Source: Escherichia coli (lineage in GTDB: Bacteria; Pseudomonadota; Gammaproteobacteria; Enterobacterales; Enterobacteriaceae). Taken from it: 64,000 nt of DNA. The position numbers and the translations under genes are program-made. Each line of letters starts with the position of its first letter. Within the stretch, counting starts at the first letter, position 1. This document shows positions 1 to 30,399 of the stretch, piece after piece. The DNA lies in assembly GCF_013122565.1 (NCBI RefSeq), contig NZ_CP053258.1. One strand, written 5' to 3'. Below the pieces are notes generated by a model. It was not told the origin of the DNA. It saw only the letters and a list, made by a program, of their open reading frames with translations, and ran no database searches.

Positions 1-1
1 G

Positions 2-1582
2 ATGTTCACCAACGACGCGGGAGAGTTCGCCCCGCTGGCGTTTATGAACGTGCTCTCGCAGGCACATATTGTGCAGGTGATCGTCAACTCTATCGTCTTA
101 TCGATAGCGGTGGGTATTGGCTGTACTTTCTTCAGTCTGGTGCTGGCGATTTATACCACACGCATCGCCAAACGCAGCGCCATTATTGGCCGCATCTTTT
201 CCATTCTGCCCATCGTTACGCCACCGTTTGTGGTCGGCTTAGGCGTGACGCTCATGATGGGGCGTTCCGGCTACGTCACGGAATTTATGGTGGAGTGGTT
301 TGGGCTGACCAACACCAACTGGCTGTATGGTTTTACCGGGATCTGGCTGGCGCAGGTTCTGGCATTCACGCCAATGGCTTTTATGATCCTCGACGGGGCC
401 ATTAAAACCATTCATCCCTCGCTGGAAGAAGCCTCCTACACCCTGCGCGCCAGCCGCTGGCAAACCTTTAACGGCGTGTTTGTGCCGTTGTTGAAGCCCG
501 CACTCGCCAATGCCTTTTTAATCGTCGTGGTACAGTCACTGGCTGATTTCAGTAACCCGCTGGTACTTGGCGGTAACTTCGACGTACTGGCGACGCAAAT
601 TTACTTCTATATTACCGGCTCGCAGCTGGATTATCAGGCCGCCAGCACCCTTGGCGCTTTCCTGCTGCTGTTCTCGCTGCTGGTGTTCTGCATCCAGTAT
701 ATGTGGATTGGTAAACGCTCTTACGTCACGGTTTCCGGCAAATCCTACCGTGGCGACGTCCAGCCGCTACCGGTCACCCTGGTGTGGAGCGTGGTCGCCA
801 TACTTGCGATATGGATTGCCTTTAACGCCCTGCTCTACGGCAGCATTTTCTACGGCAGCTTCACGGTGAACTGGGGCGTGGACTACACCCTGACGCTGGA
901 TAACTTTATCAAGCTATTTGGTCAGGGAATGAGCGACGGCGCGTGGCCTTCACTGCTGGATACCCTGCTCTACGCCGGGATTGCCGCTCCCATTACCGCT
1001 ATCTTTGGCCTGCTCATCGCCTGGGTGGTGGTGCGTCAACAATTCAAAGGCAAAAAGACCATCGAGTTCACCACCATGCTGTGCTTTGCCGTACCGGGTA
1101 CGGTGGCGGGCGTTTCGTATATTCTTGCCTTTAACAGCGCTCCGGTTTATCTCACCGGAACGGCGGCAATTGTGATTATCTCGATGGTGATGCGTAACGT
1201 TCCGGTGGGTATTCGCGCCGGGATTGCAGGCCTGGGGCAGATCGACAAATCGCTGGATGAAGCCTCACTCAGCCTGCGCGCGGGTTCCTTGCGAACCATA
1301 ACCCACATTTTACTGCCGCTGCTGCGTCCGGCCATTCTCTCGGCCCTGATCTACAGCTTTGTGCGGGCCATCACGACGGTCAGCGCCATCGTCTTTCTCG
1401 TCACGCCGGACACCCGCGTGGCAACCGCCTACATTCTTAACCGCGTTGAAGACGGCGAATATGGCGTAGCCATCGCCTATGGTTCGATTCTGATCGTGGT
1501 GATGCTGGCGATTATTTTCCTCTTTGACTGGCTGATCGGAGAAGCTCGTATCTCCCGTTCTAAAGCCAAAAACCAGGCGTAA
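2..1582 (+). CDS. ABC transporter permease, two-domain FbpB/AfuB-like (5' end truncated by window edge)
   Basis: 526-aa ORF open to window start; long polytopic hydrophobic protein with two repeated permease halves; stop codon overlaps the in-frame ATG of the next ORF. Confidence 0.8.
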
Positions 1583-1593
1583 TGGAGCGCACT

Positions 1594-2640
1594 ATGAGTC
1601 AGAAAAATTTTGTTGAACTGCGCAACGTCACTAAACGATTCGGCAGTAATACGGTTATCGACAATATCAATCTCACCATTCCACAAGGGCAAATGGTGAC
1701 GCTGCTCGGTCCTTCCGGCTGTGGCAAAACCACCATTTTGCGTCTGGTTGCCGGGCTGGAAAAACCGAGCGAAGGGCAAATTTTTATTGATGGCGAAGAT
1801 GTCACGCATCGTTCCATTCAACAGCGCGATATCTGCATGGTGTTTCAGTCATACGCTCTGTTCCCGCATATGTCGCTGGGTGAAAACGTTGGCTACGGGC
1901 TGAAGATGCTTGGCGTCTCGCGTAGCGAAGTGAAACTGCGGGTGAAGGAGGCGCTGGCAATGGTGGATCTGGAAGGCTTCGAGGACCGCTATGTCGATCA
2001 GATTTCCGGTGGTCAGCAACAGCGAGTGGCACTGGCCCGCGCGTTGATCCTCAAGCCAAAGGTGCTGCTGTTTGATGAGCCGTTAAGTAACCTCGATGCC
2101 AACCTGCGCCGCAGTATGCGCGATAAGATCCGCGAGCTGCAAAAGCAGTTTAATATCACGTCGCTCTACGTCACTCACGATCAAAGTGAAGCTTTCGCGG
2201 TGTCCGACACTGTGCTGGTGATGAATAAAGGTCACATCATGCAGATTGGCTCACCGCAGGATCTCTATCGTCAGCCAGCCTCCCGCTTTATGGCAAGTTT
2301 TATGGGCGACGCCAACCTGTTCCCGGCGAACTTTAGCGAAGAGTATGTCGATATCTACGGTTATCGCCTGCCGCGCGCGGCGCATTTCCCGGCGCAAGGT
2401 AGCGGCACCGTCGGCGTTCGCCCGGAAGCCATCACCTTAAGCAATCACGGCGAAGAGAGTCAGCGTTGTGTTATTCGCCATGTCGCCTACATGGGGCCGC
2501 AGTACGAAGTGACCGTAGAGTGGCATGGACAGGAGATTTTATTACAAGTAAACGCCACCCGTTTACAGCCCGATATTGGTGAGCACTATTACCTCGAAAT
2601 CCATCCTTACGGGATGTTTGTTTTAGCGGATGCGGCATAA
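1594..2640 (+). CDS. ABC transporter ATP-binding protein (FbpC/AfuC-like, with C-terminal regulatory domain)
   Basis: Walker [13 protein letters not shown] signature LSGGQQQR, Walker [13 protein letters not shown]; GGAG 6 nt upstream of ATG 1594 (alternative ATG at 1582). Confidence 0.85.
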
Positions 2641-2652
2641 AAATAGCACATA

Positions 2653-2682
2653 AACGGTCCCCATCTGTCTTGAGGGACCGTT
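2653..2682 (+). terminator. Stem-loop downstream of ABC ATPase (aacggtccc / gggaccgtt), no clear U-tract
   Basis: 9-bp perfect inverted repeat with 12-nt loop immediately after stop codon. Confidence 0.3.
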
Positions 2683-2722
2683 CACCTGGTTAGGCTTCGG
2701 ACAACAATTATTCTCCAGTGTT

Positions 2723-2775
2723 ATATACTATAGGGGGGTATGCATTGACATATAGCATACCCCCCTATAGTATAT
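2723..2775 (+). promoter_or_regulatory. frmR promoter/operator: long inverted repeat with G6/C6 tracts flanked by TATAGTAT arms
   Basis: atactatagggggg ... cccccctatagtat inverted repeat directly upstream of frmR start; matches the known type of FrmR/RcnR-family operator (G/C tract flanked by AT-rich arms). Confidence 0.6.
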
Positions 2776-2799
2776 TGCATGCAGATGATGAGGTGCGAA

Positions 2800-3075
2800 A
2801 TGCCCAGTACTCCGGAAGAGAAGAAAAAGGTCCTTACTCGAGTTCGTCGTATTCGAGGGCAGATTGATGCTCTGGAACGGTCGCTGGAGAGTGATGCCGA
2901 ATGCCGTGCCATACTCCAACAGATCGCTGCCGTTCGGGGCGCGGCTAATGGGCTGATGGCAGAAGTGCTTGAAAGCCATATCCGGGAAACGTTTGACCGA
3001 AATGACTGCTACAGCCGCGAAGTCAGCCAATCCGTTGACGACACTATTGAACTGGTTCGTGCCTATCTTAAATAG
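2800..3075 (+). CDS. frmR: Formaldehyde-responsive transcriptional repressor FrmR (RcnR/CsoR family)
   Basis: 91-aa product starting [21 protein letters not shown]; GAGG SD upstream; track ORF begins 21 nt earlier at an in-frame ATG. Confidence 0.9.
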
Positions 3076-3079
3076 CTGA

Positions 3080-4219
<1,140 letters not shown>

Positions 4220-4311
4220 TTTCCCGCTGGTTTACCCCGTCCACTTCAGACGGGGTTCTTAATACTCTCCCCGGGCAGCCGTCCGGGGGATTAACCGTGA
4301 GATAATGACTG

Positions 4312-5145
4312 ATGGAACTCATTGAAAAACATGCCAGCTTTGGCGGCTGGCAAAATGTGTATCGGCATTATTCCGCATCACTGAAATGTGAAATGAATGT
4401 CGGCGTCTATCTCCCACCAAAAGCTGCAGGTGAAAAATTACCTGTGCTGTACTGGCTTTCGGGCCTGACCTGCAATGAGCAGAATTTCATTACTAAATCG
4501 GGGATGCAGCGTTACGCGGCTGAGCACAACATTATTATTGTTGCGCCGGACACCAGTCCGCGAGGCAGTCATGTCGCAGATGCCGACCGTTACGATCTCG
4601 GGCAAGGTGCCGGGTTTTACCTGAACGCGACGCAAGCGCCGTGGAATGAACATTACAAAATGTATGACTATATCCGCAACGAGCTGCCGGATTTAGTGAT
4701 GCAACATTTTCCGGCAACGGCCAAAAAGTCTATCTCTGGTCATTCTATGGGCGGGCTGGGCGCGCTGGTGCTGGCGTTACGTAACCCAGATGAATATGTC
4801 AGCGTCTCGGCGTTTTCGCCCATTGTCTCCCCATCGCAAGTGCCGTGGGGACAGCAAGCCTTTGCTGCATATCTTGGTGAAAATAAAGAGGCCTGGTTGG
4901 ATTACGACCCGGTGAGTCTTATTTCACAAGGTCAACGCGTTGCGGAAATCATGGTTGATCAGGGGTTGAGTGATGATTTTTACGCGGAACAGCTGCGGAC
5001 TCAAAATCTTGAAAAGATCTGCCAGGAGATGAATATCAAGACGTTAATCCGTTATCACGAGGGTTACGACCACAGCTATTATTTTGTCTCCAGTTTTATT
5101 GGCGAGCATATTGCCTACCACGCCAATAAACTGAATATGCGTTGA
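4312..5145 (+). CDS. frmB: S-formylglutathione hydrolase
   Basis: 277 aa esterase D family, GHSMGG nucleophile elbow; follows frmA. Confidence 0.92.
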   Translation: MELIEKHASFGGWQNVYRHYSASLKCEMNVGVYLPPKAAGEKLPVLYWLSGLTCNEQNFITKSGMQRYAAEHNIIIVAPDTSPRGSHVADADRYDLGQGAGFYLNATQAPWNEHYKMYDYIRNELPDLVMQHFPATAKKSISGHSMGGLGALVLALRNPDEYVSVSAFSPIVSPSQVPWGQQAFAAYLGENKEAWLDYDPVSLISQGQRVAEIMVDQGLSDDFYAEQLRTQNLEKICQEMNIKTLIRYHEGYDHSYYFVSSFIGEHIAYHANKLNMR

Positions 5146-5154
5146 TAATAGTGC

Positions 5155-5260
5155 ACGACTGCCGGATGCGGCGTGAACGCCTTATCCGCCTACATTTCGC
5201 CCGCAGGCCGTAGGCATGATAAGACGCGCATAGCGTCGCATCAGGCATCTGCGCACGACT
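5155..5260. repeat. REP/BIME cluster (two inverted REP units)
   Basis: gccggatgcggcgtgaacgccttatccgcctac and gcctgatgcgacgctatgcgcgtcttatcatgcctac-type palindromic units between convergent frmB and yaiL. Confidence 0.8.
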
Positions 5261-7200: not shown

Positions 7201-7257
<57 letters not shown>

Positions 7258-16456: not shown

Positions 16457-16650
16457 TAGCGCGTGCAGGAAAGTCAATTCAGGTTCCCCACTAACCAACT
16501 GAATTGTGGGAAGATTGCTTTATCAGGCTTAATACAAGCCATTCGGTAACAGTTTTTCTCGCTCCCGCCCTGTCACTCCTGTTGATTGTGCAATGTTACA
16601 AAAATGCTTCATTTTTGTTGATTTTCTACTGTGATCAATTCGGCAATATC

Positions 16651-16703
16651 CTCTCCTGAATTTCACCAGACTACTTCCAGCCCATTCGCAATATCAGGAG
16701 AGA
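16651..16703 (+). promoter_or_regulatory. Leader inverted repeat (ctctcctga ... tcaggagag) overlapping the Shine-Dalgarno of the acyl-CoA ligase gene
   Basis: 9-bp perfect inverted repeat; both arms preceded by gcaatatc; 3' arm contains the AGGAG RBS 4 nt upstream of ATG 16707. Confidence 0.35.
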
Positions 16704-16706
16704 CAA

Positions 16707-18263
16707 ATGAGCAGCACCTCCGCCGACTTCCAGAATTTGTATCAGGCACTGAGTCACAGCGCCGCCCGCAGTCCGAATGACCTGGCGCTGGCGTTTGAGG
16801 ATCAGCGCTATATGTACCGCGATTTTCACCTGCGGGTACAGCGGACGATGGCGCAACTTGACCGCAGCTGGTCGTTGCGCAAAGGCGACCGGATCCTGCT
16901 GGCCCTGGGGAATCATCCCGCTTTTTGCGAAGTCCTTTTTGCGGCAGTTGGTCTGGGCATCGAGGTGGTGCCTTTCAGCACTAAGCTTAAGCAGGCCGAG
17001 AGCGAGGAGCTGGTGGGTCATATCGCGCCCCAGGTCGTGCTGTTCGATGCAACCGTGCAGGACTGGCTGAAAAACACCCCCAACGCGCGCGCTGTTTCAC
17101 TTAGTGAATGGCTGGCGCTTTCTCTTCCCGAACCGCTGACTCGCCTGCCGGCCCAGGTTAACCGCGACGACACGGCGGTGATGATGTTTACCTCAGGTAC
17201 TACCGGGGAGCCAAAAGGCGCGATTATCACCCACCATAATCTGCTCTGCGCGATTGACGCCTATACGCAAAAACTGAATCTGACCGCTGCGGATAGCACT
17301 ATTCTGGCGGTGCCTATTTATCACATCACTGGCCTGTCGGCGCTGCTGGCGCTGTTTATTAGCCTTGGTGCGAGCATCTGGCTGCAACACCGGTTCAATG
17401 CCTCGCAGGTGATCAATACCCTGCGCGAGCAAAATATTACCTTTCTGCACGGCTCGCCAACCATCTTTATCCTCCTATGTCAGGCGGCACGCGAAATAAG
17501 CGACAGCCATCCGGGCGATTTTCCCGCGCTACGGACGATCGCTTGCGGTGCGGGCCACCTGAGCGACGGCCTTATCAAAGAGTTAAAAACGCTGTTCCCG
17601 CATACGGCAATTCAGCCGATCTACGGGCTCACCGAAACGACCTCACCCGCGACGATTTTTCCAGGCGACGTCTGGGGTAGCGAGAAATGCGGCAGTTCGG
17701 GCCAGGCGATCCCCGGCCTCACGATTACGATTCGCAACGATCGCCAGCAACGTCTCCCTGCCGGACAAATTGGGCATATCTGGCTGAAAGGCGATGTGGT
17801 CATCCGCGAGTACTGGCAGCACAGCGAAAGACGCCCGAGCTGCGATGAACAGGGCTGGTTTTGTACGGGTGATTTGGGCTATCTCGACGACGAAGGCTGG
17901 CTGTACATCAAAGACCGCAGTAAAGACATGATCAATCGCGGTGGGGAGAAAATTTACTCTCTGGAGCTGGAAAACATTCTCTCTACCTATCGGGGAGTAC
18001 GGGAAGTCGCCGTGATCCCGGCCCCCAGCCCGCTCTATGGTGAAGAGCCGGTGGCGTTTATCGTGCCGGACGGTCAACACCACCTGACAAGCGAAGAGAT
18101 CCTCTGCTGGCTGAAGGTCAAAATTGCCCGCTTTAAGCTTCCGGCACGCATTATTTTCACCCGCATTTTACCCCGTACCCATAACGGAAAAGTGAGCAAA
18201 CAACAGCTCAAAACACGCCTTGCGGAATCGATCATCACGTTATCAACGGAGGATAAACAGTGA
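16707..18263 (+). CDS. AMP-dependent synthetase / acyl-CoA ligase (class I adenylate-forming enzyme)
   Basis: 518 aa; AMP-binding motif TSGTTGEPKGA, downstream GYGLTE-like and adenylation core motifs. Confidence 0.85.
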   Translation: MSSTSADFQNLYQALSHSAARSPNDLALAFEDQRYMYRDFHLRVQRTMAQLDRSWSLRKGDRILLALGNHPAFCEVLFAAVGLGIEVVPFSTKLKQAESEELVGHIAPQVVLFDATVQDWLKNTPNARAVSLSEWLALSLPEPLTRLPAQVNRDDTAVMMFTSGTTGEPKGAIITHHNLLCAIDAYTQKLNLTAADSTILAVPIYHITGLSALLALFISLGASIWLQHRFNASQVINTLREQNITFLHGSPTIFILLCQAAREISDSHPGDFPALRTIACGAGHLSDGLIKELKTLFPHTAIQPIYGLTETTSPATIFPGDVWGSEKCGSSGQAIPGLTITIRNDRQQRLPAGQIGHIWLKGDVVIREYWQHSERRPSCDEQGWFCTGDLGYLDDEGWLYIKDRSKDMINRGGEKIYSLELENILSTYRGVREVAVIPAPSPLYGEEPVAFIVPDGQHHLTSEEILCWLKVKIARFKLPARIIFTRILPRTHNGKVSKQQLKTRLAESIITLSTEDKQ

Positions 18264-19852
18264 GTAACAAATTTATCAGCGCCCATGAAGCGGCGCAGTT
18301 AGTCACCAGCGGCGATACCGTCTGCACCGTCGGGATGACGCTTATCGGCGCGGCAGAATCCATTTTAGCGGCCATTGAAGCGCGCTTTCTGACCGAGGGC
18401 ACACCGCGCGATCTGACATTGTTACATGCCGCAGGGCAAAGCGATCGGCAGCGCGGCATTCAGCACTTCGCCCATCAGGGAATGGTGACGCGGCTTATCG
18501 GTTCGCACTGGGGCCTTGCGCCGCGCTGGATGGCGATGATCAACAACAACGAAGTGGAAGCCTGGTGCCTGCCGCAGGGGCAGATCGTCCATCTTTATAG
18601 CGCGATGGCCGCCGGACTTACAGGGCGACTCTCCCCCGTCGGGCTGGGTACTTTTGTCGATCCGCGCATAGAAGGCGGGCGGATGAATGCCCGTACCCGC
18701 GAAAAGCCAGATCTGATTGAGCATGTGATGTTTCGCGGCGACGAGTATCTGTTTTATCCAGCCATTCCCCTGAACGTCGTCATTGTGCGCGGAACTCATG
18801 CCGATGAAGACGGCAACCTCACTACGGATGAAGAGGTCATGAAACTGGAAGTTCTGCACGCGGTTCTCGCCGCCAGACGTTACGGGGCGAAGGTGCTGGC
18901 GCAGGTGAAATATCGTGTGGCGAAAGGTTCGCTGCATCCGAAAAGCGTCACCGTTCCTGGCAACCTGATCGATGCCATTGTGGTGTGCAACGAGCCGCAG
19001 ACGGATCACCGCCAAAGCTCCAGTTGGGACTTCGATCCGGCACTGTGCGGCGATATCCAGTTGCCCGCAGCGCAGAATGCGCCGCTGCAACTCGACCTGC
19101 GCAAACTTATCGGGCGGATCGCCTGCCGCTATCTGACGCCCGGCTGTGTCATCAATCTTGGCACCGGGATCCCCAATGATGTGATTGGCGCCATCATCCA
19201 TGAAGAACAGCTCGGCGAGCAAGTCACCATCACCGTTGAATCGGGGATCTACGGTGGGCAGCAGGCGGGCGGCGTTGATTTTGGTATCGGTCGTAATCTG
19301 AGCGCGATGATAAGTCACCAGGATCAAATGCTCTATTACAACGGCGCGGGCGTCGATATCACCTTTATGGGTGCCGGCGAGATGGATCCGCACGGTCACG
19401 TCAACGCCACGCGGCTCGGTGCATCCTGCCCCGGCGCAGGCGGTTTTATCGACATCACGCAGAATGCCCGCCACGTCGTGTTCTGCTCCTCTTTTACCGC
19501 CAAAGGGCTGGAGATTGCCTGTGAAAATGGGCAGTTGCATATCCTGCGCGAAGGCGAGGTACGTAAGTTCGTCGCCGGGGTTAATCAGATTTCTTATAAC
19601 GGTGAGCTGGCCCGCAACAAAGGCCAAACCATGCATTACGTCACCGAACGGGCAGTGTTCGAACTACGTCCGCAGGGACCGGTGCTGACGGAAATCGCCC
19701 CCGGCATCGATCTTGAGCGCGACATCCTGGCACATATGGATTTTCGTCCGGCTATCGCCGGGGATCTTAAGGTAATGGACAGCCGTTTATTTGCCCCGCA
19801 GCCCTGTGGCCTGGCGGAACATCTGTCCCACAATTCATCCTCTGACTCATAA
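18260..19852 (+). CDS. Family I CoA-transferase, fused alpha/beta (YdiF-like acyl-CoA:acetate/3-ketoacid CoA transferase)
   Basis: 530 aa; architecture and ESG glutamate region resemble E. coli YdiF; GTG start overlaps ligase stop by 4 nt with GGAGGA SD. Confidence 0.8.
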   Translation: MSNKFISAHEAAQLVTSGDTVCTVGMTLIGAAESILAAIEARFLTEGTPRDLTLLHAAGQSDRQRGIQHFAHQGMVTRLIGSHWGLAPRWMAMINNNEVEAWCLPQGQIVHLYSAMAAGLTGRLSPVGLGTFVDPRIEGGRMNARTREKPDLIEHVMFRGDEYLFYPAIPLNVVIVRGTHADEDGNLTTDEEVMKLEVLHAVLAARRYGAKVLAQVKYRVAKGSLHPKSVTVPGNLIDAIVVCNEPQTDHRQSSSWDFDPALCGDIQLPAAQNAPLQLDLRKLIGRIACRYLTPGCVINLGTGIPNDVIGAIIHEEQLGEQVTITVESGIYGGQQAGGVDFGIGRNLSAMISHQDQMLYYNGAGVDITFMGAGEMDPHGHVNATRLGASCPGAGGFIDITQNARHVVFCSSFTAKGLEIACENGQLHILREGEVRKFVAGVNQISYNGELARNKGQTMHYVTERAVFELRPQGPVLTEIAPGIDLERDILAHMDFRPAIAGDLKVMDSRLFAPQPCGLAEHLSHNSSSDS

Positions 19853-19863
19853 GGAAATTAACT

Positions 19864-20598
19864 ATGAAACTAGCCAGTAAAACGGCCATTGTCACCGGCG
19901 CCGCGCGCGGTATCGGATTTGGTATTGCCCAGGTGCTTGCGCGAGAAGGTGCCCGAGTCATCATCGCCGACCGCGACCCACATGGCGAAGCCACTGCCGC
20001 ATCCCTGCGCGAACAGGGTGCCCAGGCGCTGTTTATCAGCTGCAATATTGGCGATAAAACGCAGGTTGAAGCGCTGTTTTCCCAAGCCGAAGAAGCGTTT
20101 GGCCCGGTGGATATTCTGGTTAATAACGCCGGTATCAACCGCGACGCCATGTTGCACAAACTCACTGAAGCGGACTGGGACACGGTGATTGACGTCAATA
20201 TGAAGGGCACGTTTCTCTGTATGCAGCAGGCGGCAATCCGTATGCGCGAGCGCGGCACGGGCCGCATTATCAATATCGCTTCCGCAAGCTGGCTTGGCAA
20301 CGTTGGGCAAACCAACTATTCGGCGTCAAAAGCGGGCGTGGTCGGGATGACTAAAACCGCCTGTCGCGAACTGGCAAAAAAAGGGGTCACGGTTAACGCC
20401 ATCTGCCCCGGTTTTATTGATACCGATATGACGCGCGGCGTCCCGGAAAACGTCTGGCAAATCATGATCAACAAAATTCCTGCGGGCTACGCCGGGGAGG
20501 CGAAAGACGTTGGCGAGTGTGTGGCGTTTCTGGCGTCCGACGGCGCGCGCTATATCAATGGTGAAGTGATTAATGTCGGCGGCGGCATGGTTCTGTAA
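19864..20598 (+). CDS. Short-chain dehydrogenase/reductase (FabG-like 3-oxoacyl / 3-hydroxyacyl oxidoreductase)
   Basis: 244 aa; TGAARGIG cofactor motif, catalytic YSASK (YxxxK); AAGGA SD. Confidence 0.85.
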   Translation: MKLASKTAIVTGAARGIGFGIAQVLAREGARVIIADRDPHGEATAASLREQGAQALFISCNIGDKTQVEALFSQAEEAFGPVDILVNNAGINRDAMLHKLTEADWDTVIDVNMKGTFLCMQQAAIRMRERGTGRIINIASASWLGNVGQTNYSASKAGVVGMTKTACRELAKKGVTVNAICPGFIDTDMTRGVPENVWQIMINKIPAGYAGEAKDVGECVAFLASDGARYINGEVINVGGGMVL

Positions 20599-20608
20599 GG
20601 GGAAAAAG

Positions 20609-21799
20609 ATGATACAGGCTAATGATATTGTGGTGGTCAGCGGCGTCCGTACCGCTATTGGCACGTTTAATGGCAGTCTTAAGCATACCCACCAGCATGA
20701 CCTGGGGGCAGCGGTCATTCGCGAAGCGGTCAGCCGCGCCGGACTTGCGCCGAAAGATATCGATGAAGTGATCGTCGGCAACGTTGGGCAAATCGCCGAA
20801 AGCGGTTTTATCGCCCGCATCTGCCAGCTTCGGGCGGGGATCCCGCAGGAAAGTACCGCGTATTCGGTTAACCGCCAGTGCGGCTCCGGTCTACAGGCCC
20901 TGGCAGACGGCATGATGCAGCTACAAAGCGGTCAGGCCGATGTCGTCGTCGCCTGCGGAACTGAAAATATGACCCAACTGCCCTACTACCTGCGTAAAGC
21001 GCGGGATGGCTATCGCATGGGTCATGGCGAGCTGGAAGATGGTCTGATTTCTATCCTCACCTGGCCTGAAGGGCCTTATCACAACGGCATCACGGCGGAA
21101 AACGTCGCGCAACAGTTCGGGATCACCCGCGAAGCGATGGACGATTTCGCCTGGTCAAGCCAGCAGAAGGCGCTGAAAGCCATCGCGCAGGATCGCTTTC
21201 GCGAACAGATCCTGCCCCTTGAAGTGCCGGACGGCAAAAAAGCCTCCCGCCTGTTCGCGGTTGATGAACACCCGCGTGACACCCCACGCGAAAAGCTCGC
21301 CACGCTGCGACCGGCATTTAAAGCCGACGGCGTGGTGACGGCAGCCAACTCATCCGGCATTAACGACGGTGCGGCTGCGCTGGTGATGATGACCCGTCAG
21401 CAGGCGGAAAAGCGTGGCTTAACCCCACTAATGCGGATCCGCGGCTGGGCGGTTGCCGGCTGCGGCGCAGATATCATGGGCTTTGGCCCTGCTCCCGCGA
21501 CCCGGCGTCTGATGGACCGTCTCAATATGGATGTCCACGCCATAGATTTAATTGAACTCAATGAGGCCTTCGCCGCCCAGGCGCTGGCGGTGATGAACGA
21601 TCTGCGTCTCGATCCGGCCCGCGTCAACGTTAATGGCGGCGCAATCGCCCTCGGACACCCGGTGGGTGCCAGCGGTGCGATCTTGCCGGTCAAACTCATG
21701 TATGAAATGGCGCGCAGCGGTGCACGTACCGGTCTGGTCACGATGTGCATCGGCGGCGGTCAGGGAATTTCTATGCTGTTCGAGCGCGAAGGCGCTTAG
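20609..21799 (+). CDS. Thiolase (acetyl-CoA C-acyl/acetyltransferase)
   Basis: 396 aa from MIQANDIVVVSGVRTAIG; active-site NRQCGSGLQA, C-terminal GHPVGASG and CIGGGQG motifs; track ORF begins 12 codons earlier. Confidence 0.85.
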   Translation: MIQANDIVVVSGVRTAIGTFNGSLKHTHQHDLGAAVIREAVSRAGLAPKDIDEVIVGNVGQIAESGFIARICQLRAGIPQESTAYSVNRQCGSGLQALADGMMQLQSGQADVVVACGTENMTQLPYYLRKARDGYRMGHGELEDGLISILTWPEGPYHNGITAENVAQQFGITREAMDDFAWSSQQKALKAIAQDRFREQILPLEVPDGKKASRLFAVDEHPRDTPREKLATLRPAFKADGVVTAANSSGINDGAAALVMMTRQQAEKRGLTPLMRIRGWAVAGCGADIMGFGPAPATRRLMDRLNMDVHAIDLIELNEAFAAQALAVMNDLRLDPARVNVNGGAIALGHPVGASGAILPVKLMYEMARSGARTGLVTMCIGGGQGISMLFEREGA

Positions 21800-21807
21800 G
21801 AAAAGAC

Positions 21808-21830
21808 GGCCCGAAGTGGGGCTTCGGGCC
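21808..21830 (+). other. GC-rich hairpin (ggcccgaag tgggg cttcgggcc) between thiolase and MFS genes; no U-tract
   Basis: 9-bp perfect stem with 5-nt loop 9 nt after thiolase stop. Confidence 0.4.
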
Positions 21831-21934
21831 GAGCGTCGTTCGGGCCAGTACCCGGCGACAACCTATGAGCTGACGAACGGGATCGTGTCGATCCCGGCAA
21901 GGCTTCTGACCACGAATACGGGGAAATAATAACC

Positions 21935-23272
21935 ATGTCCGCAATAAATGAAAAGGTGATAAACGGGACGCAGCTACAACGCACCCATAAAAAGATCTAC
22001 CGCCATTTGATGCCGCTACTTATCGTGGCGTACATCATAAGCTTTATTGATCGTACCAATATCGGCATGGCGAAAGCGACCATGTCGGTGGATATCGGCC
22101 TTTCCGCAACCGCATTCGGCCTCGGAGCCGGGTTGTTTTTTCTCACCTACGCAGTGCTGGAGATCCCAAGCAACCTGTTTTTAACCCGAATTGGCGCGCG
22201 GCGCTGGATCGCCCGCATCATGATCACCTGGGGAATCATCTCCTGCGGCATGGCGTTTGTCACCGGACCTACGTCATTTTACGTGATGCGCTTATTGCTC
22301 GGCGCCGCCGAAGCGGGGCTGTATCCGGGCATTATCTACTACCTGACCCTTTGGTTTGGTCGCGAAGAGCGCGCGAAAGCCACCGGCCTTTTCCTGCTGG
22401 GGGTCTGTCTGGCCAATATTATCGGTGCGCCGCTGGGCGGATTGTTATTAAACCTTGATGGTATGTCCGGCTGGCACGGCTGGCAGTGGATGTTTTTTAT
22501 CGAAGGGCTGCCTGCGATACTGCTGGCGTTTGTCGTCTGGCGCAAGCTGCCGGATAAACCTGCCGATGCTCGCTGGCTGGACAGCAACGACGTGCAGGCC
22601 ATTAACGCGGTGCTGGAGAAAGAAGCGCAAGAGACGCGTCATACACCAAACCGCTTCTCCCTCAAAACCGCACTCACCACCCGCGTATTTTTGTTGCTGG
22701 TGCTGATTTACTTTACCCACCAGTTTTCAGTTTACGGCCTGAGTTATTTTCTGCCGGGGATCATTGGTAGCTGGGGCCAGCTTACGCCGCTGCAGATAGG
22801 TCTGCTGACCGCTATCCCGTGGATTGCAGCGGCGGCTGGCGGCATCCTGCTGCCGCGTTTCGCCCGGACGGAACAGCGTTCACGCAGAATGCTGATGGCC
22901 GGATACCTGGTCATGGCCACCGGCATGGCGATTGGTGCAATTTCCGGTCACGGCGTTGCGCTGCTTGGCTTCTCGCTGGCCGCTTTCATGTTCTTCGCTA
23001 TGCAATCCATCATCTTTAACTGGCTCCCCTCGATCATGAGCGGGCATATGCTGGCGGGTAGCTTCGGCCTGCTTAACTGCCTTGGTCTGTGCGGAGGCTT
23101 TCTCGGGCCGTTTATTCTCGGTGCGTTTGAGGATCGAACCGGCGCGGCAACGTCAGGTTTATGGTTCGCCGTCGGGCTGTTGATTGTCGGCGCGTTGGTA
23201 TCTCTGTTCATCAAAGGTTCGTCATCCCTGGGCCATGCTTCGGCAAAACAGGCCTGTGGCGAAAAAGCTTAA
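21935..23272 (+). CDS. MFS transporter, anion:cation symporter (ACS) family-like (hydroxy-acid/aldonate-type permease)
   Basis: 445 aa, 12 predicted TM segments, FIDRTNIG motif typical of ACS-family permeases. Confidence 0.75.
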   Translation: MSAINEKVINGTQLQRTHKKIYRHLMPLLIVAYIISFIDRTNIGMAKATMSVDIGLSATAFGLGAGLFFLTYAVLEIPSNLFLTRIGARRWIARIMITWGIISCGMAFVTGPTSFYVMRLLLGAAEAGLYPGIIYYLTLWFGREERAKATGLFLLGVCLANIIGAPLGGLLLNLDGMSGWHGWQWMFFIEGLPAILLAFVVWRKLPDKPADARWLDSNDVQAINAVLEKEAQETRHTPNRFSLKTALTTRVFLLLVLIYFTHQFSVYGLSYFLPGIIGSWGQLTPLQIGLLTAIPWIAAAAGGILLPRFARTEQRSRRMLMAGYLVMATGMAIGAISGHGVALLGFSLAAFMFFAMQSIIFNWLPSIMSGHMLAGSFGLLNCLGLCGGFLGPFILGAFEDRTGAATSGLWFAVGLLIVGALVSLFIKGSSSLGHASAKQACGEKA

Positions 23273-23285
23273 TTAAGAGGTTCTT

Positions 23286-24164
23286 ATGCGCATCGAAGTC
23301 TTACTGGATTTAAAAACACGGCTCGGTGAAAGCCCGGTCTGGGATGTCGAACAACAGCGCCTTTGGTGGGTGGACAGCCTTGATGGACGCCTGTTTGCCT
23401 GTAATGCGCAGGGCGGCGCGATTAAGAGCTGGGATGTACGGCAGAAAATTGGCTCTTTTGCCCTACGCCAGAACGGGGAAGGCGCGGTGGTGGCGCTTCA
23501 AAATGGCGTTCATCTGCTCGACTTCGCCAGCGGCGAGCTGACGCTGCTGCACCACCCGGAAGCGGACCGCCCCTTTAACCGACTTAACGATGGCAAAGTC
23601 GATCGTCAGGGACGCTTTCTGTTCGGGTCAATGGATATGCGCGAGGAGGAGCCGAGCGGCGCGCTGTATCGCCTGGACGCCGATCTATCACTGCACGTAC
23701 TGAAGAAAAATATCATCGTCTCCAACGCCCCCTGCTGGAGTCCATCCGGCGAGACGTTTTATTTTGCCGATACCTGGTCGGGCAAAATCCGCGCCTGGGA
23801 TTACAACACCGCGACCGGAGATATCTCCGCAGAACGGCTCTTTTGCCATGTCGATCGCAGCGAAGGCGGCGCAGCGGATGGTGCTACCGTGGACAGCGAA
23901 GGGTGTCTGTGGAATGCGCTGGTCTACGCGGGCAAGTTAGTACGCTACACGCCGGAAGGGCAGATTGATCGCATCATTGAGATGCCGGTGAAAAAAGTCA
24001 CCAGTGTGATGTTCGGCGGCGAAAATCTCGACGTGCTGTACGTCACTTCAATGGCGCAGCCGCCCCTGGCGCGTTTCCCGGAAGATAATCAGTTGCGTGG
24101 CAGCCTGTTCGCCATTTACGACCTGGGCGTGACCGGCGTTGCGGAACGGCGTTTTGCCGGATAA
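23286..24164 (+). CDS. SMP-30/gluconolactonase/LRE-family lactonase (regucalcin-like beta-propeller)
   Basis: 292 aa; family motifs SPVWD, NDGKVDRQGRF, DGATVDSEGCLW; AAGAGG SD. Confidence 0.8.
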   Translation: MRIEVLLDLKTRLGESPVWDVEQQRLWWVDSLDGRLFACNAQGGAIKSWDVRQKIGSFALRQNGEGAVVALQNGVHLLDFASGELTLLHHPEADRPFNRLNDGKVDRQGRFLFGSMDMREEEPSGALYRLDADLSLHVLKKNIIVSNAPCWSPSGETFYFADTWSGKIRAWDYNTATGDISAERLFCHVDRSEGGAADGATVDSEGCLWNALVYAGKLVRYTPEGQIDRIIEMPVKKVTSVMFGGENLDVLYVTSMAQPPLARFPEDNQLRGSLFAIYDLGVTGVAERRFAG

Positions 24165-24254
24165 GCGAACTTTCGGTTCGCCGCGATAACCATAATACGC
24201 GGCGAACTGACTCTGACCCTGACACATGGCGGCGCGCCGTGGAGTAAAAAAACT

Positions 24255-25592
24255 ATGACAACACTCAATCAAATACCTGCCAGCAAACGCGATGGAAAAA
24301 AGCGGCTGATCCACCGTTTCTCCTGGGTTTCATTGCTGGTTTGCTGGCTTATCTGGGTGCTCAACGCCTACGATCGCGAGATGATCCTGCGCCTTGGCCC
24401 GGTGATTTCTAAGGAGTTCTCGCTCTCGCCGGAACAATGGGGGAACGTCGTAGCACTGATTATGGTGGCCCTTGCGGTGCTGGATATCCCGGGCGCCATC
24501 TGGAGCGATCGTTACGGATCAGGCTGGAAGCGAGCACGCTTTCAGGTGCCGCTGGTGCTGGGCTACACCGCGTTGTCTTTTATCTCCGGGATAAAAGCTG
24601 TCAGCCACGGTCTGACGACCTTTGTATTGCTGCGCGTTGGGGTCAACCTCGGGGCTGGCTGGGGCGAGCCCGTCGGCGTCAGCAACACCGCAGAGTGGTG
24701 GCCGAAAGAGAAACGCGGTTTCGCGCTGGGGGTGCATCATACCGGTTATCCCATTGGCGCACTGCTAAGCGGTGTCGTGGCAAGCCTGGTACTTTCCACA
24801 TTTGGCGAAGGTAACTGGCGCTACTGTTTCCTGCTGGCGCTGATCGTCGCTATTCCGCTGATGCTCTTCTGGGCGAAATATTCCACCGCCGCCCGAATCA
24901 ACACGCTTTATCAGCATATCGATAGTCAGGGAATGACGCGCCCGGCGACGCAGGAAAGCAATCATGTTGCGAAAGGCGAAGGGCTGAAAACGTTTTTACG
25001 TACCCTGCGCAATCGCAATATTTCGCTGACGGCAGGCAATACTCTGCTGACGCAGATTGTCTATATGGGCATTAACGTTGTGCTGCCGCCGTATCTTTAT
25101 CATGTCTCCGGCCTGTCGCTGGCAGCATCCGCCGGGATGAGTATTATCTTTACGCTTACTGGTACTCTGGGGCAGATAATTTGGCCCTGGCTGTCCGACA
25201 GTTTTGGTCGTAAACGTACCCTGATTGTCTGCGGTCTGTGGATGAGTATCGGCATTGCACTGTTCTATTTCGCCACGAATATGCCGCGCCTTATCGCCAT
25301 TCAGCTATTTTTTGGACTGGTGGCAAACGCCGTGTGGCCTATCTATTACGCAATGGCCTCGGACTCCGCCGAAGAACGCGCCACCTCTACTGCAAACGGA
25401 ATTATCACCACGGCAATGTTTATTGGCGGTGGCATTTCGCCATTGCTCATGGGCTGGCTAATTCAGCTTGGTGGGGGTTGGGAAAACCCGGCGGGTTATA
25501 TCTACGCCTTCTTTACGATGGCGGGATGTGCGCTGCTGGGGATGCTGTTGCAGTTAATGACCAGTGATAAAACGCCGCGCAAAGCGCATTAA
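24255..25592 (+). CDS. MFS transporter (second permease of the cluster)
   Basis: 445 aa polytopic protein with MFS loop motif (SDRYGSGWKR), GGAG SD. Confidence 0.75.
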   Translation: MTTLNQIPASKRDGKKRLIHRFSWVSLLVCWLIWVLNAYDREMILRLGPVISKEFSLSPEQWGNVVALIMVALAVLDIPGAIWSDRYGSGWKRARFQVPLVLGYTALSFISGIKAVSHGLTTFVLLRVGVNLGAGWGEPVGVSNTAEWWPKEKRGFALGVHHTGYPIGALLSGVVASLVLSTFGEGNWRYCFLLALIVAIPLMLFWAKYSTAARINTLYQHIDSQGMTRPATQESNHVAKGEGLKTFLRTLRNRNISLTAGNTLLTQIVYMGINVVLPPYLYHVSGLSLAASAGMSIIFTLTGTLGQIIWPWLSDSFGRKRTLIVCGLWMSIGIALFYFATNMPRLIAIQLFFGLVANAVWPIYYAMASDSAEERATSTANGIITTAMFIGGGISPLLMGWLIQLGGGWENPAGYIYAFFTMAGCALLGMLLQLMTSDKTPRKAH

Positions 25593-25605
25593 TTCAGGAG
25601 AACGC

Positions 25606-25728
25606 ATGAAGATTGTTATCGCGCTGGATCCTTTTAAGAGTCGGCTCCTCGCAGACGCTGCGGAGAATGTTATACGAACCTTTGTGAGCGGACGACGCAA
25701 AGAGAAACATAAGCGGATGACCTTATGA
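25606..25728 (+). pseudogene. 40-codon ORF resembling the N-terminus of glycerate kinase (GarK/GlxK-like remnant), translationally coupled (ATGA) to the CdaR-family gene
   Basis: Translation MKIVIALDPFKSRLLADAAENVIRTF... resembles the MKIVIAPDSFKESLSA N-terminus of glycerate kinases (recalled from memory); strong AGGAG SD; stop overlaps cdaR-like ATG. Confidence 0.35.
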
Positions 25729-26882
25729 TTATTACGACGGCGCTGGCTAATGAAATTGTCACCAGGGCGATGGCAATCATTCATCATAACGTGAACGTAA
25801 TTGACCATTATGGACAGATCATTGCCTCAGGTGAACGGCATCGTATCGGCGAGCAACATGAAATCGCCCGTGAGGTGATACGCACGGGTAAACGCATTTG
25901 TATTAACAACGCTGCTGAAGCCGCGCGTTTTAAGAATGTGCTTCCGGGTATTAATCATCCCATTATCTATGACGATCGCGTGGTGATGGTTGTGGGTATC
26001 AGCGGCGATCCCGCAGCGATCAGCCGCTATGCTGAACTGGCGGTGCTCACCGCCGAGCTGCTGGTCCGCCAGGCCGCCGAGATGCAAGAAACCAACTGGC
26101 GACAGCGCCTGCGCGATACCTTGTTTTGTCAGTATCTTGAGCAAGGTACCTCGCCCGCCGGGCAGGAATCACTCCATCGCCTGCTCGAAACTGGCTTCGC
26201 TTTTGATGCGCCGCTGGTACCAGTCGTCGTATCAGTGCAGGTTGAGCAGCACCAGCTAAGCGAAATTTTAAGTACGCTGCTGCGGGAGTTCTCCCGGTTG
26301 GCCGGGGTAAGAGACGTTATTTTGCTCGGCAGCAATGAGATTTTACTCCTCAATACGCTGAGCGAACCGCAGGAAACATTGCTGCGCAGCATTGAGTTTG
26401 TTCTTAGCAATCAGATCAGTCATTACCATATCGGGATAGGCGTACAGGCGGATAGCGCCCCGGATATTCGCGAGGCCATCAGATTCGCCCGTTCGGTGAT
26501 TGAAGTTGGGAGCAAAGTGCAGCCACAGCGGCAGATCTACTATTTTCGCGAAATGGCCATGCTCTGCCTGTTCCGGGTACTGGAAGACAGCTATATGGTG
26601 AATTTTTTTATCAATAATGTCCGCCAGTTGCTTGAACATGATTCTGGCGAAGTGCTGCTGGATACCCTGAGCAGCTTTATTGCCAATAACGCAGAGCTGG
26701 GTAAAACATCGCTGCTGTTGGGTATTCACCGCAATACGCTCACCTATCGTCTACAGCAGATAAAAAAGCATATCCAGCTCGATCCGATGGTCTTCACCGA
26801 CCTGACGCAACTGGCGGTGTCGGTACACTGCTATCGTCGGCAGAACCCGCGCCAGAGCGAATGGATCGATAGCTTAAGTTAA
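25725..26882 (+). CDS. CdaR/SdaR-family (sugar diacid regulator-like) transcriptional regulator
   Basis: 385 aa; N-terminal diacid-regulator domain and C-terminal PucR-type HTH; overall architecture like E. coli CdaR. Confidence 0.8.
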   Translation: MIITTALANEIVTRAMAIIHHNVNVIDHYGQIIASGERHRIGEQHEIAREVIRTGKRICINNAAEAARFKNVLPGINHPIIYDDRVVMVVGISGDPAAISRYAELAVLTAELLVRQAAEMQETNWRQRLRDTLFCQYLEQGTSPAGQESLHRLLETGFAFDAPLVPVVVSVQVEQHQLSEILSTLLREFSRLAGVRDVILLGSNEILLLNTLSEPQETLLRSIEFVLSNQISHYHIGIGVQADSAPDIREAIRFARSVIEVGSKVQPQRQIYYFREMAMLCLFRVLEDSYMVNFFINNVRQLLEHDSGEVLLDTLSSFIANNAELGKTSLLLGIHRNTLTYRLQQIKKHIQLDPMVFTDLTQLAVSVHCYRRQNPRQSEWIDSLS

Positions 26883-26930
26883 AACGCGATGGGGTCAGTT
26901 CATTATTTCAAAGAGCATAAGTACAGGAAC

Positions 26931-26972
26931 AAATGTCGGATGCGCCACTGGGCACATCCGACAATCTTTTAT
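26931..26972. terminator. Bidirectional hairpin terminator between the cdaR-like gene and cynX
   Basis: tgtcggatgcgcc actg ggcacatccgaca stem (one mismatch) flanked by T-rich tracts on both strands; REP-like sequence. Confidence 0.6.
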
Positions 26973-27003
26973 TGTTCCATTGTCTCGCAAAACAAGCGTC
27001 GCA

Positions 27004-28158
27004 TCATGCCTCTTTGACCCACAGCTGCGGAAAACGTGCTGGTGCAAAACGCAGGGTTATGATCATCAGCCCAACGACGCACAGCGCATGAAATACCCAG
27101 TCCATCAGGTAATTGCCGCTGATACTACGCAGCACGCCAGAAAACCACGGGGCAAGCCCGGCGATGATAAAACCGATCCCCTGCATAAACGCCACCAGCT
27201 TGCCAGCAATAGCAGGTTGCACAGAGTGATCGAGCGCCAGCAGCAAACAGAGCGGAAATGCGCCGCCCAGACCTAACCCACACACCATCACCCACAATAC
27301 CGGCAATTGCAGCGGCAACCAGATAAAGCCGCAGAACCCCACCAGTTGTAACACCAGCGCCAGCATTAACAGTTTGCGCCGATCCTGATGGCGAGCCATA
27401 GCAGGCATCAGCAAAGCTCCTGCGGCTTGCCCAAGCGTCATCAATGCCAGCAAGGAACCGCTGTACTGCGCGCTGGCACCAATCTCAATATAGAAAGCGG
27501 GTAACCAGGCAATCAGGCTGGCGTAACCGCCGTTAATCAGACCGAAGTAAAGGCCCAGCGTCCACGCGCGGGGAGTGAATACCACGCGAACCGGAGTGGT
27601 TGTGGTCTTGTGAGAAGAGGCGACCTCGCGGGCGCTTTGCCACCACCAGGCAAAGAGCGCAACAACGGCAGGCTGCGCCCACCAGGCGAGTGTTTGATAC
27701 CAGGTTTCGCTATGTTGAACTAACCAGGGCGTCAGGGCGGCACCAAGTCCACCGCCGCCCATCAGAGCCGCGGACCACAGCCCCATCACCAGTGGCGTGC
27801 GCTGCTGAAACCGCCGTTTAATCACCGAAGGCATCACCGCCTGAATGATGCCGATCCCCACCCCACCAAGCAGTGCGCTGCTAAGCAGCAGCGCACTTTG
27901 GGGGTAAAGCTCACGCATCAATGCACCGACGGCAATCAGTAACAAACTGATGGCGACGCTGCGACGTTCGCTGACATGCTGATGAAGCCAGCTTCCGGCC
28001 AGCGCCAGCCCGCCCATGGTAACCACCGGCAGAGCGGTCAACAGGGCAGCCACGCTAAAGCTCATTCCGCTTGCCTGGCGCAATTGCGGTAGCAGTGGCC
28101 CGACGGAGGTGAGCAGTGGTCGCATATTAAGACCAATCAGCACCAGAACCAGCAGCAT
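27004..28158 (-). CDS. cynX: Cyanate MFS transporter
   Basis: 384 aa from MLLVLVLIGLNMRPLLTSVGPLL; follows cynS. Confidence 0.9.
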   Translation of the reverse strand: MLLVLVLIGLNMRPLLTSVGPLLPQLRQASGMSFSVAALLTALPVVTMGGLALAGSWLHQHVSERRSVAISLLLIAVGALMRELYPQSALLLSSALLGGVGIGIIQAVMPSVIKRRFQQRTPLVMGLWSAALMGGGGLGAALTPWLVQHSETWYQTLAWWAQPAVVALFAWWWQSAREVASSHKTTTTPVRVVFTPRAWTLGLYFGLINGGYASLIAWLPAFYIEIGASAQYSGSLLALMTLGQAAGALLMPAMARHQDRRKLLMLALVLQLVGFCGFIWLPLQLPVLWVMVCGLGLGGAFPLCLLLALDHSVQPAIAGKLVAFMQGIGFIIAGLAPWFSGVLRSISGNYLMDWVFHALCVVGLMIITLRFAPARFPQLWVKEA

Positions 28159-28190
28159 CGTGAACGTCTTTTGATGGTTACGCATGGCTG

Positions 28191-28679
<489 letters not shown>

Positions 28680-28691
28680 TTAAAAATAAGG

Positions 28692-29351: not shown

Positions 29352-29460
29352 CGTTAACCTCTGTCTGTCTCTGGAATGAGAGGCAGACTACTCGCCGATT
29401 GTCATAAGGTAAAAGTCTCATTTATGATGAGTTCTATTGGATTTACTTATAGGTTGGCGA
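29352..29460. promoter_or_regulatory. cynR / cynTSX divergent promoter region (LysR-type control region)
   Basis: 109-bp AT-rich spacer between divergent cynT and cynR starts. Confidence 0.5.
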
Positions 29461-30381: not shown

Positions 30382-30399
30382 TCTTCAACGCAGAGGAAA

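Follow-up and report, generated by a model that had tools for sequence, protein, structure and literature searches.

Genes upstream of frmR in an Escherichia coli genome predicted to encode the AfuB and AfuC components of a sugar-phosphate importer

The two transporter genes that precede frmR at the start of the window (the whole stretch of Escherichia coli DNA analysed here, 64,000 nucleotides of contig NZ_CP053258.1) are predicted, with a probability of roughly 0.93, to be afuB and afuC of AfuABC, a type I ABC importer that depends on a binding protein and carries cyclic hexose and heptose phosphates (G6P, F6P, and S7P), not iron. The substrate and the in vivo role of AfuABC come from the literature, whereas the identity, intactness, context, distribution, and ligand conservation of the genes were read from sequence here; we infer that the transporter of this strain acts like the published AfuABC. 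Published work already covers the locus, what it transports, and where it sits in EHEC. The present comparison adds modest context: the genes belong to a six-gene unit conserved across the Enterobacterales, the unit looks ancestral at this site, and the remnant in K-12 comes from another, integrase-borne copy.

Only the 3' part of afuB falls within the window (Table 1). The open reading frame encodes 526 amino acids without an internal stop codon and is identical to residues 167-692 of the 692-residue AfuB found on two related contigs (L095 and L001); the N-terminal 166 residues are cut off by the window edge, as the original prediction had supposed. Pfam matched BPD_transp_1 twice in the permease, and two EAA loops are present, at nucleotides 425 (EEASYTL) and 1256 (DEASLSL). 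The ATPase is intact: it contains the Pfam domains ABC_tran and TOBE_2, and its Walker A, Q-loop, signature, Walker B, and H-loop motifs were all found, VTHD among them. The annotated afuC start at 1594 (MSQKNF...) has GGAG ahead of it at 1585-1588; a longer open reading frame, 1582..2640, begins at an in-frame alternative ATG at 1582 that overlaps the afuB stop codon. The original prediction of a permease and an ATPase of the AfuBC/FbpBC type is right.

Table 1. Features at the start of the window, from afuB to the frm operon.
Feature	Position	Strand	Description
afuB, 3' part	2..1582	+	Residues 167-692 and stop codon of a fused two-domain ABC permease
afuC (annotated fbpC)	1594..2640	+	348-aa ABC ATPase with C-terminal TOBE_2; NCBIfam NF008513, 696 bits
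Cassette-specific 3' flank	2641..2707	.	Breakpoint with yaiO-type (K-12-like) genomes at 2707/2708
Hairpin AACGGUCCCC...GGGACCGUU	2653..2682	+	Just 3' of afuC; predicted fold; without a U-tract
frmR operator palindrome	2723-2775	.	21-nt perfect arms, 11 nt apart; inverted repeat search
frmR	2800..3075	+	NCBIfam NF008464, 180 bits
frmA	3110-4219	+	Glutathione-dependent formaldehyde detoxification operon
frmB/fghA	4312-5145	+	Glutathione-dependent formaldehyde detoxification operon (2800..5145)

Both proteins vary little among relatives. AfuB has no amino acid differences from its counterpart in strain PapM-32-1, and an O157-type strain, whose accessions are shared with the EDL933 proteins, differs at four positions in AfuB and two in AfuC. 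The exact AfuC protein is present on 16 public contigs, and the seven listed of these 16 share the same layout as far as the contigs reach. Relative to Klebsiella indica, 197 nucleotide differences in afuB change only 12 amino acids. Substitutions in the afuB and afuC comparisons are mostly synonymous, and these patterns show strong purifying selection.

To assign a substrate class, the original prediction suggested that the permease be compared to AfuB, FbpB, and ThiP. Such a comparison with family models was run, but it did not assign the class: the best NCBIfam model, PhnU2, reaches 241 bits against a cut-off of 593, and the ThiP models are weak. The binding protein does assign it. The gene for this protein, afuA, and the regulator genes lie outside the window and were read from relatives and from the overlapping contig L095, an exact match (100% identity) to window positions 1-5187. 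On L095, the end of afuA is 565 bp ahead of the first window position, in keeping with the expectation that a binding-protein gene would lie just beyond the edge.

The L095 AfuA matches the ApAfuA structures (4r72-4r75) with E=1e-168 and 76% identity over 320 residues. ApAfuA, from Actinobacillus pleuropneumoniae, a member of another family (Pasteurellaceae), has been crystallised (PDB 4R72-4R75) and binds G6P, F6P, and S7P. Five residues of AfuA contact G6P, with H205, D206, and E229 contacting the sugar and S37 and T150 the phosphate (PMC4546632); all five are kept in the AfuA of both L095 and L001. The binding protein of the P5PA pyridoxal-5-phosphate system of Actinobacillus (PDB 6WCE, PMC8427247) is a paralog of the same subfamily that matches with E=2e-109; AfuA is clearly the closer of the two, and the E. 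coli protein carries the sugar-binding triad of AfuA. Experiments showed that the AfuABC systems of A. pleuropneumoniae and Citrobacter rodentium transport G6P, F6P, and S7P, not iron (Sit et al. 2015; PMC4546632). The system helps an attaching-effacing pathogen to be transmitted between guts. The proteins of EHEC O-island 20 (OI-20) are >83% identical to the C. rodentium proteins tested (PMC4546632), and AfuB and AfuC of Citrobacter species share 93-96% amino acid identity with the window proteins. From what is known of the family and from the published experiments, AfuA would bind a sugar phosphate in the periplasm and then dock on AfuB, a single polypeptide with two permease domains that each carry an EAA coupling loop. 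ATP hydrolysis by an AfuC dimer would power import, and the TOBE domain of AfuC may contribute regulation.

The afuB and afuC genes are the last two of a six-gene cassette with the order response regulator, MASE1 histidine kinase, UhpC-like MFS protein, afuA, afuB, afuC; on L095 none of the six is interrupted by a stop codon. They are kept as a unit in 75 of 80 Enterobacterales loci, and the other five are cut short by contig ends. In all 80 loci, as far as the contigs reach, afuA is followed by a single gene for the fused two-domain permease (afuB) and then a single ATPase gene (afuC); three short loci lack afuA or afuC at a contig end.

Of 5426 complete E. coli genomes, 516 (about 9%) carry the cassette, and it is prominent in the EHEC/EPEC lineages O157:H7, O55:H7, and O145:H28. 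The cassette of EHEC O157:H7 has been published as O-island 20, comprising FusKR, Z0461, and AfuABC (PMC4546632, PMC4897363), and EDL933 carries the same six genes in the same position between tauA and frmR, where they replace the yaiS-yaiO segment of K-12. The arrangement is accordingly less unusual than the original prediction implied. PapM-32-1, the O157-type strain, and EDL933 all have the layout tauDCBA, response regulator, histidine kinase, UhpC-like protein, binding protein, permease, fbpC, frmRAB. At the nucleotide level the locus is 99.6% identical to that of PapM-32-1 and 98.1% identical to that of the O157-type strain; the differences from O157:H7 are allelic only, and the host is not of the O157 lineage. 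In most E. coli the tauA-frmR interval holds yaiS-yaiP-yaiX-yaiO in place of the cassette. Such genomes were counted with yaiO alone as the query, because an IS2 inside yaiX confounded searches with the whole yaiO-yaiS segment. The cassette is bounded on one side at window 2707/2708 and on the other by a junction some 40 bp upstream of tauA; in every genome without the cassette the match begins at 2708, and alignment with the K-12 yaiO-frmR spacer gives the same junction.

No complete E. coli genome is more than 97.3% identical to the rest of the window. Elsewhere in it, the lac operon is replaced by a gene cluster that none of the complete E. coli genomes has; exact-protein look-ups with two proteins of this cluster found neither on record.

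At the tauA-frmR site the cassette looks like a retained ancestral locus and not a recent insertion, because tauA also adjoins it in other genera and because mobility genes, flanking repeats, and a GC shift are all lacking there. Some 35 loci from Citrobacter, Klebsiella, Enterobacter, and Raoultella have tauA as the divergent neighbor of the cassette, and about ten from Citrobacter have mhpT at 1-6 kb on its downstream side. No integrase, IS element, or tRNA was found at the cassette borders, and a search for flanking direct repeats or target-site duplications returned short chance families only, the frmR operator being the one strong repeat; the GC content of the cassette (0.53-0.55) is the same as that of the flanking DNA. 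The name O-island 20 would suit a different history, in which a pathogenicity island was recently acquired beside frmR by horizontal transfer. About 90% of the complete E. coli genomes lack the cassette, and it is prominent in the EHEC/EPEC lineages; both points fit such an acquisition, as do copies of the six genes on integrase-bearing islands elsewhere, one beside ulaF and carrying iha (L085), the other at tRNA-Phe with mmuPM (L086). We nevertheless consider a recent acquisition unlikely: the borders, repeats, and composition described above speak against it, E. coli lineages diverge by as much as 5% in the copies at this site (L087), suggesting an old locus, and the nearest host strain is a commensal isolated from a baboon. 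The original prediction had held that the arrangement would be unremarkable if it were the common ancestral state in E. coli. This is largely the case: the tauA position, shared across genera, and the downstream mhpT of Citrobacter suggest an ancestral locus, although the arrangement is not common in E. coli.

The three genes ahead of afuA together make up a UhpABC-type module, with a NarL/GerE-type regulator, a MASE1/HisKA_3 kinase, and a UhpC-like MFS sensor (Pfam) that are 48%, 35%, and 53% identical to K-12 UhpA, UhpB, and UhpC, respectively. The UhpABC-UhpT system of E. coli K-12 has the same substrates, but UhpT is a phosphate antiporter whereas AfuABC is an ATP-driven ABC importer. The kinase-regulator pair of EHEC has been described as the fucose sensor FusKR (PMC4897363, PMC6199705). 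Tentatively, and at somewhat below even odds for the two parts jointly, the module may be primarily a Uhp-type hexose-phosphate sensor that switches on the ABC importer, and the tauA-frmR interval may be an old two-state polymorphism. Fucose sensing by FusKR in EHEC would then be a secondary or indirect property; the regulator trio always stands ahead of afuABC, in species mostly without the LEE. The alternative states, cassette or yaiSPXO, may stem from an ancestor with both in tandem, an arrangement that Citrobacter braakii has (L020).

It is very improbable that these genes instead encode, as annotated, a ferric-iron importer of the FbpABC/SfuABC type for siderophore-independent iron uptake, and the iron(III) substrate class of the original prediction is not supported. 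The RefSeq gene name is fbpC, and AfuC reaches 696 bits with NF008513, "ferric ABC transporter ATP-binding protein", a model whose cut-off is 496; this naming is a legacy label and no test of substrate. FbpABC, HitABC, and SfuABC have the same build as AfuABC, namely a cluster D binding protein, two permease domains fused into one protein, and one ATPase that carries a regulatory domain at its C-terminus, and the legacy ferric annotation follows from this common architecture; their ligand is Fe3+, whereas that of AfuABC is a sugar phosphate (PMC4546632). Older literature lists AfuABC as an Fe3+ transporter (PMC2266911), a mistaken label of long standing; uptake of sugar phosphates was shown in 2015 (PMC4546632). 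AfuA is distantly related to the ferric proteins FbpA and HitA, but with E of only about 1e-12; its E-values put some 150 orders of magnitude between the match to the sugar-phosphate AfuA and the best match to a ferric protein, and by this measure it is not of the FbpA/HitA/SfuA type; it also keeps all five G6P ligands. AfuC likewise matches 1v43, among sugar and polyamine ATPases, more closely (9e-80) than Neisseria FbpC, 3fvq (1.6e-55), and the regulators linked to afuABC are Uhp-like. No Fur box with three or fewer mismatches was found in L095, a weak test that, with a chance expectation of zero, excludes only a near-perfect site; genuine Fur sites commonly depart further than this from the consensus. 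The "ferric" and "fbpC" names, still spread by automatic annotation, mislead about what is a nutrient-uptake system.

The statement that K-12 has only a degraded afuBC pair in a prophage-like region, and a different neighbor for frmR, proved accurate: the neighbor is yaiO, and the afuB'/afuC copy in CP4-6 matches window 1234-2640 only, with a permease fragment that lacks the N-terminus. This copy is paralogous; at 85.8% nucleotide identity it is as distant from the window as are the orthologs of Citrobacter and Klebsiella (85.6-87.3%). An intact integrase-borne cassette is found in strain PI12, at tRNA-Phe beside mmuMP, and the CP4-6 remnant derives from the integrase-borne version. That the window genes are themselves a decaying, nonfunctional remnant, as in K-12-type genomes that keep only afuC and the permease fragment, is extremely improbable, as the partial afuB in the window reflects the window edge, L095 has the full-length AfuB and six genes without stops, and the substitution patterns speak for selection.

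Downstream of afuC, a 93-nt stretch that includes the hairpin (Table 1) is no more stable than its shuffles (z = -0.94), and a consensus terminator scan from afuC to frmR made its sole call inside the coding end of afuC (2602-2616), passing over the hairpin; the hairpin is at most a weak terminator or 3'-end stabilizer. The cassette ends 15 bp short of the frmR operator, which lies outside the cassette and is common to both locus types: in K-12 it is nearly identical, with one mismatch in one arm. Embedded in the operator, a promoter scan placed a -35 element (TTGACA) at 2745-2750 and a -10 element (TAGTAT) at 2768-2773. The transporter genes do lie upstream of frmR as first described, but the afuC stop codon (2640) is 82 nt from the operator palindrome and 159 nt from the frmR ATG; the 140 bp given to the operator is the distance to the start, at 2779, of a longer, unannotated open reading frame. 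A link between sugar-phosphate uptake and formaldehyde detoxification was considered and rejected, because frmRAB follows afuC in E. coli loci only (in none of 79 loci from other organisms) and because the frmR promoter and operator are unchanged. The adjacency of afuC and frmR is a coincidence of the cassette boundary.

The permease and ATPase genes at window 2-2640, directly upstream of frmR, are the already published AfuBC end of O-island 20 (OI-20) of EHEC, a sugar-phosphate importer; the six-gene block of this island encodes FusR, FusK, Z0461, and AfuABC (PMC4546632; PMC4897363; PMC6199705). At least 80% of the segment is present in 516 of 5426 complete E. coli genomes (megablast), with the best match in the baboon isolate PapM-32-1 (99.6% identity), followed by O169:H41 (99.0%), O145:H28 (98.9%), and O157:H7 and O55:H7 (98.0-98.1%). 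Annotation gives an identical layout for PapM-32-1, an O157-type strain, and EDL933, the EHEC reference strain. At its left is tauDCBA, encoded on the opposite strand; the middle holds the genes for a response regulator, MASE1 histidine kinase, UhpC-like MFS protein, substrate-binding protein, permease, and "fbpC"; frmR-frmA-fghA, yaiL, and mhpT are at the right. The exact AfuC protein occurs on 16 public contigs, and the same layout is found, within each contig's reach, on 7/7 of those listed. One contig, L095, matches window 1-5187 with 100% identity and, to judge from the sequence, shows what lies upstream in this same lineage. It encodes the full 692-residue AfuB, a 343-residue AfuA that ends 565 bp before window position 1, and all three regulatory genes; AfuA, AfuB, and the regulatory genes are free of stops.

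Features at the cassette-frm junction and in the lac region of the window
Feature	Position	Strand	Remarks
afuB, 3' part	2-1582	+	526-codon open frame with a TAA stop
afuC, ABC ATPase	1594-2640	+	annotated start at 1594 (MSQKNF), preceded by GGAG at 1585-1588
Hairpin after afuC	2653-2682	+	without U-tract; region not unusually stable
frmR operator	2723-2775		perfect 21-nt inverted repeat with embedded -35/-10 pair
frmR	2800-3075	+	followed by frmA, frmB
lac-replacing genes	16484-26990	+	acyl-CoA ligase, FadX-like CoA-transferase, SDR, thiolase, MFS transporter, SMP-30/gluconolactonase-family lactonase, second MFS transporter, CdaR-type regulator

Because the afuB frame corresponds to residues 167-692 of the 692-codon gene of close relatives, the window edge cuts off 166 residues, and the "ATG" found at position 2 encodes an internal methionine. 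Domain searches identified two BPD_transp_1 domains in this part of AfuB, which also contains EAA coupling loops at nt 425 (EEASYTL) and nt 1256 (DEASLSL), and ABC_tran and TOBE_2 domains in AfuC. The catalytic motifs of AfuC are complete ([26 protein letters not shown] and VTHD); its mechanical ORF begins at 1582, overlapping the permease stop. The predicted gene pair upstream of frmR is confirmed, but the gap from the afuC end to the frmR operator is 82 nt, not 140 bp, with 159 nt to the frmR start codon. Relative to PapM-32-1 there are no amino-acid differences in the AfuB part and one in AfuC; relative to an O157-type strain there are four and two, respectively. The afuB segment differs from that of Klebsiella indica by 197 nucleotides and 12 amino acids, the signature of strong purifying selection, and afuBC are predicted to be functional. 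Outside the window, AfuB residues 1-166 (L095 7911-8408) form an extra N-terminal region with about four hydrophobic segments; PhnU2, at 546 positions the nearest curated model of a two-domain permease, starts to align only at residue 168, and a structure search found no solved structure covering this region.

The original prediction of an iron(III)-type AfuBC/FbpBC transporter followed database naming (in NCBIfam the ATPase still goes by "ferric ABC transporter ATP-binding protein"); it was right about the gene family but not about the substrate, since the binding protein, which sets specificity and here is AfuA, resembles sugar-phosphate binders. The E values for AfuA are 1e-168 against the structures 4R72-4R75 of Actinobacillus pleuropneumoniae AfuA, 2e-173 against the further structure entry 8X1A, and 2e-109 against P5PA, a paralogous binder of pyridoxal phosphate, as opposed to about 1e-12 or weaker for the genuine ferric binding proteins HitA, FbpA, SfuA, and YfuA. 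It is 76% identical to ApAfuA and keeps 5/5 of the glucose-6-phosphate contact residues of the crystal (S37, T150, H205, D206, and E229). Crystallography, ITC, and complementation tests in an E. coli uhpT mutant established that AfuABC imports G6P, F6P, and S7P, and the C. rodentium orthologue, which behaves in the same way, is required for efficient transmission; Sit et al. concluded that the iron annotation is wrong (PMC4546632). The permease is uninformative on substrate, as its top curated model, PhnU2, falls far under the cut-off and ThiP models are weak. AfuC is closer to sugar and polyamine ATPases (1V43, 9e-80; PotA, ~1e-75) than to Neisseria FbpC (1.6e-55), and the linked regulators are 48%, 35%, and 53% identical to UhpA, UhpB, and UhpC; both agree with a sugar-phosphate substrate. 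The conservation of the cassette in species without LEE suggests that these regulators form a Uhp-like hexose-phosphate sensor controlling afuABC. In those parts of the EHEC literature drawn on here, the kinase-regulator pair is instead described as a fucose sensor (PMC6199705; PMC4897363); a literature search found no paper testing Uhp-like control of afuABC.

The original prediction was right that K-12 has a different frmR neighbor and only degraded afuBC. The MG1655 order is tauA / yaiS ykiC yaiP yaiX(IS2) yaiO / frmR, and the only counterpart in K-12-type strains matches window 1234-2640 at 85.8% identity, comprising afuC and a permease fragment without its N-terminus. The gene yaiO is found in 4911/5426 genomes and the cassette in 516/5426; judged from these separate totals, the two states look nearly complementary. 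On the right, the junction falls between window positions 2707 and 2708, 15 bp short of the operator palindrome, and the two locus types are near-identical beyond it. On the left, outside the window, it is found some 40 bp upstream of where tauA starts, so the tauA promoter/regulatory region differs between cassette-type and yaiS-type genomes. Past this junction, a cassette-type relative (L001 6545-6848) and a yaiS-type locus (L003 14617-15233) show patchy similarity for roughly another 100 bp.

In a scan of one genome per species, the permease was found in 148 places. Among the best 80 of these 148, the six genes form one unit in 75 loci, and the remaining five end at contig ends. Genera with the cassette include Citrobacter, Klebsiella, Raoultella, Enterobacter, Lelliottia, Serratia, Buttiauxella, Yersinia, Xenorhabdus, Photorhabdus, Providencia, Proteus, and Edwardsiella. 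Among the same best 80 of 148, tauA is the divergent left neighbor, exactly as in the window, in about 35 loci from Citrobacter, Klebsiella, Enterobacter, and Raoultella; about 10 Citrobacter loci have mhpT at 1-6 kb downstream, and frmRAB follows afuC in E. coli only. In Citrobacter braakii ATCC 51113 (L020 1420-12640), yaiS-yaiP-yaiX-yaiO homologues (59-79% amino-acid identity) stand directly upstream of the regulator gene, so that this species has in tandem the yai block and the afu cassette, which in E. coli take each other's place. Among E. coli lineages, copies at the tau-frm site diverge by up to 5% (strain E200086). No integrase, IS element, tRNA, or flanking repeat was found at the tauA-frmR site, and the GC content of the cassette (0.53-0.55) matches that of neighboring DNA. 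Taken together, the conserved unit, its tauA and mhpT neighbors, the C. braakii tandem, the 5% divergence, and the absence of mobility marks indicate that the tau-mhp cassette is an old, vertically inherited locus, lost or replaced in most E. coli, and not by its looks a recent insertion. A common ancestral state would make the arrangement unremarkable, and these results largely point that way; the original prediction was wrong about rarity.

Two further intact copies of the six genes lie on islands, each immediately downstream of a tyrosine integrase: one beside ulaF, with iha, in an O111:H8 strain (L085 2384-11640; 95.1% identity) and one at tRNA-Phe in strain PI12 (L086 2132-14071; 90.0%), in the order tRNA-Phe, integrase, cassette, mmuM, mmuP. 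The PI12 island shares its AfuC (WP_000192349.1) with a truncated afuB'-afuC remnant by mmuMP in strain H1, and K-12-type strains match the same stretch of the window as the H1 remnant at the same 85.8% identity; the PI12 island is thus the intact counterpart of the CP4-6-type remnant. This remnant is 85.6% identical to the window copy, as distant as the Citrobacter and Klebsiella orthologues (85.6-87.3%), which implies separate histories for the K-12 remnant and the tau-frm copy.

Promoter/operator comparison and the locus survey gave no evidence for a functional link between the cassette and frmR: the frmR promoter and operator are unchanged between locus types, and the afuC-frmR adjacency is not conserved outside E. 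coli. On sequence grounds, read-through from afuC into frmR could occur.

Identity to known genomes varies along the window. Over the first 16.5 kb (afuBC, frm, mhp) it is 99.0-99.4% with PapM-32-1 and 98.9% with an O157-type strain; over window 27000-45000 no complete E. coli genome exceeds 97.3% or reaches 99%; and past 45 kb identity with PapM-32-1 is 96.6-97.0%. This suggests either that the host belongs to a poorly sampled Escherichia lineage or that the window is a recombination mosaic. The lac operon is absent: the interval between the gene for a GlxA-family regulator and cynX, which holds lacI-lacZ-lacY-lacA in PapM-32-1, is taken up in the window by eight genes on about 10.5 kb. None of the complete E. 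coli genomes (0/5426) covers this cluster beyond its edges, and the lactonase it encodes shares 96% identity with a protein cluster that bears the name of Klebsiella pneumoniae. Between yahK and yahJ, about 1 kb (window 44612-45642) stands in place of a 5.5-kb PapM-32-1 segment with an operon for a sugar ABC transporter of the AI-2 type, which comprises a binding protein, an ATPase, and two permeases. Between mhpT and mhpE, PapM-32-1 has about 465 bp extra at window 7216-7256, where the alignment blocks overlap by 41 bp.
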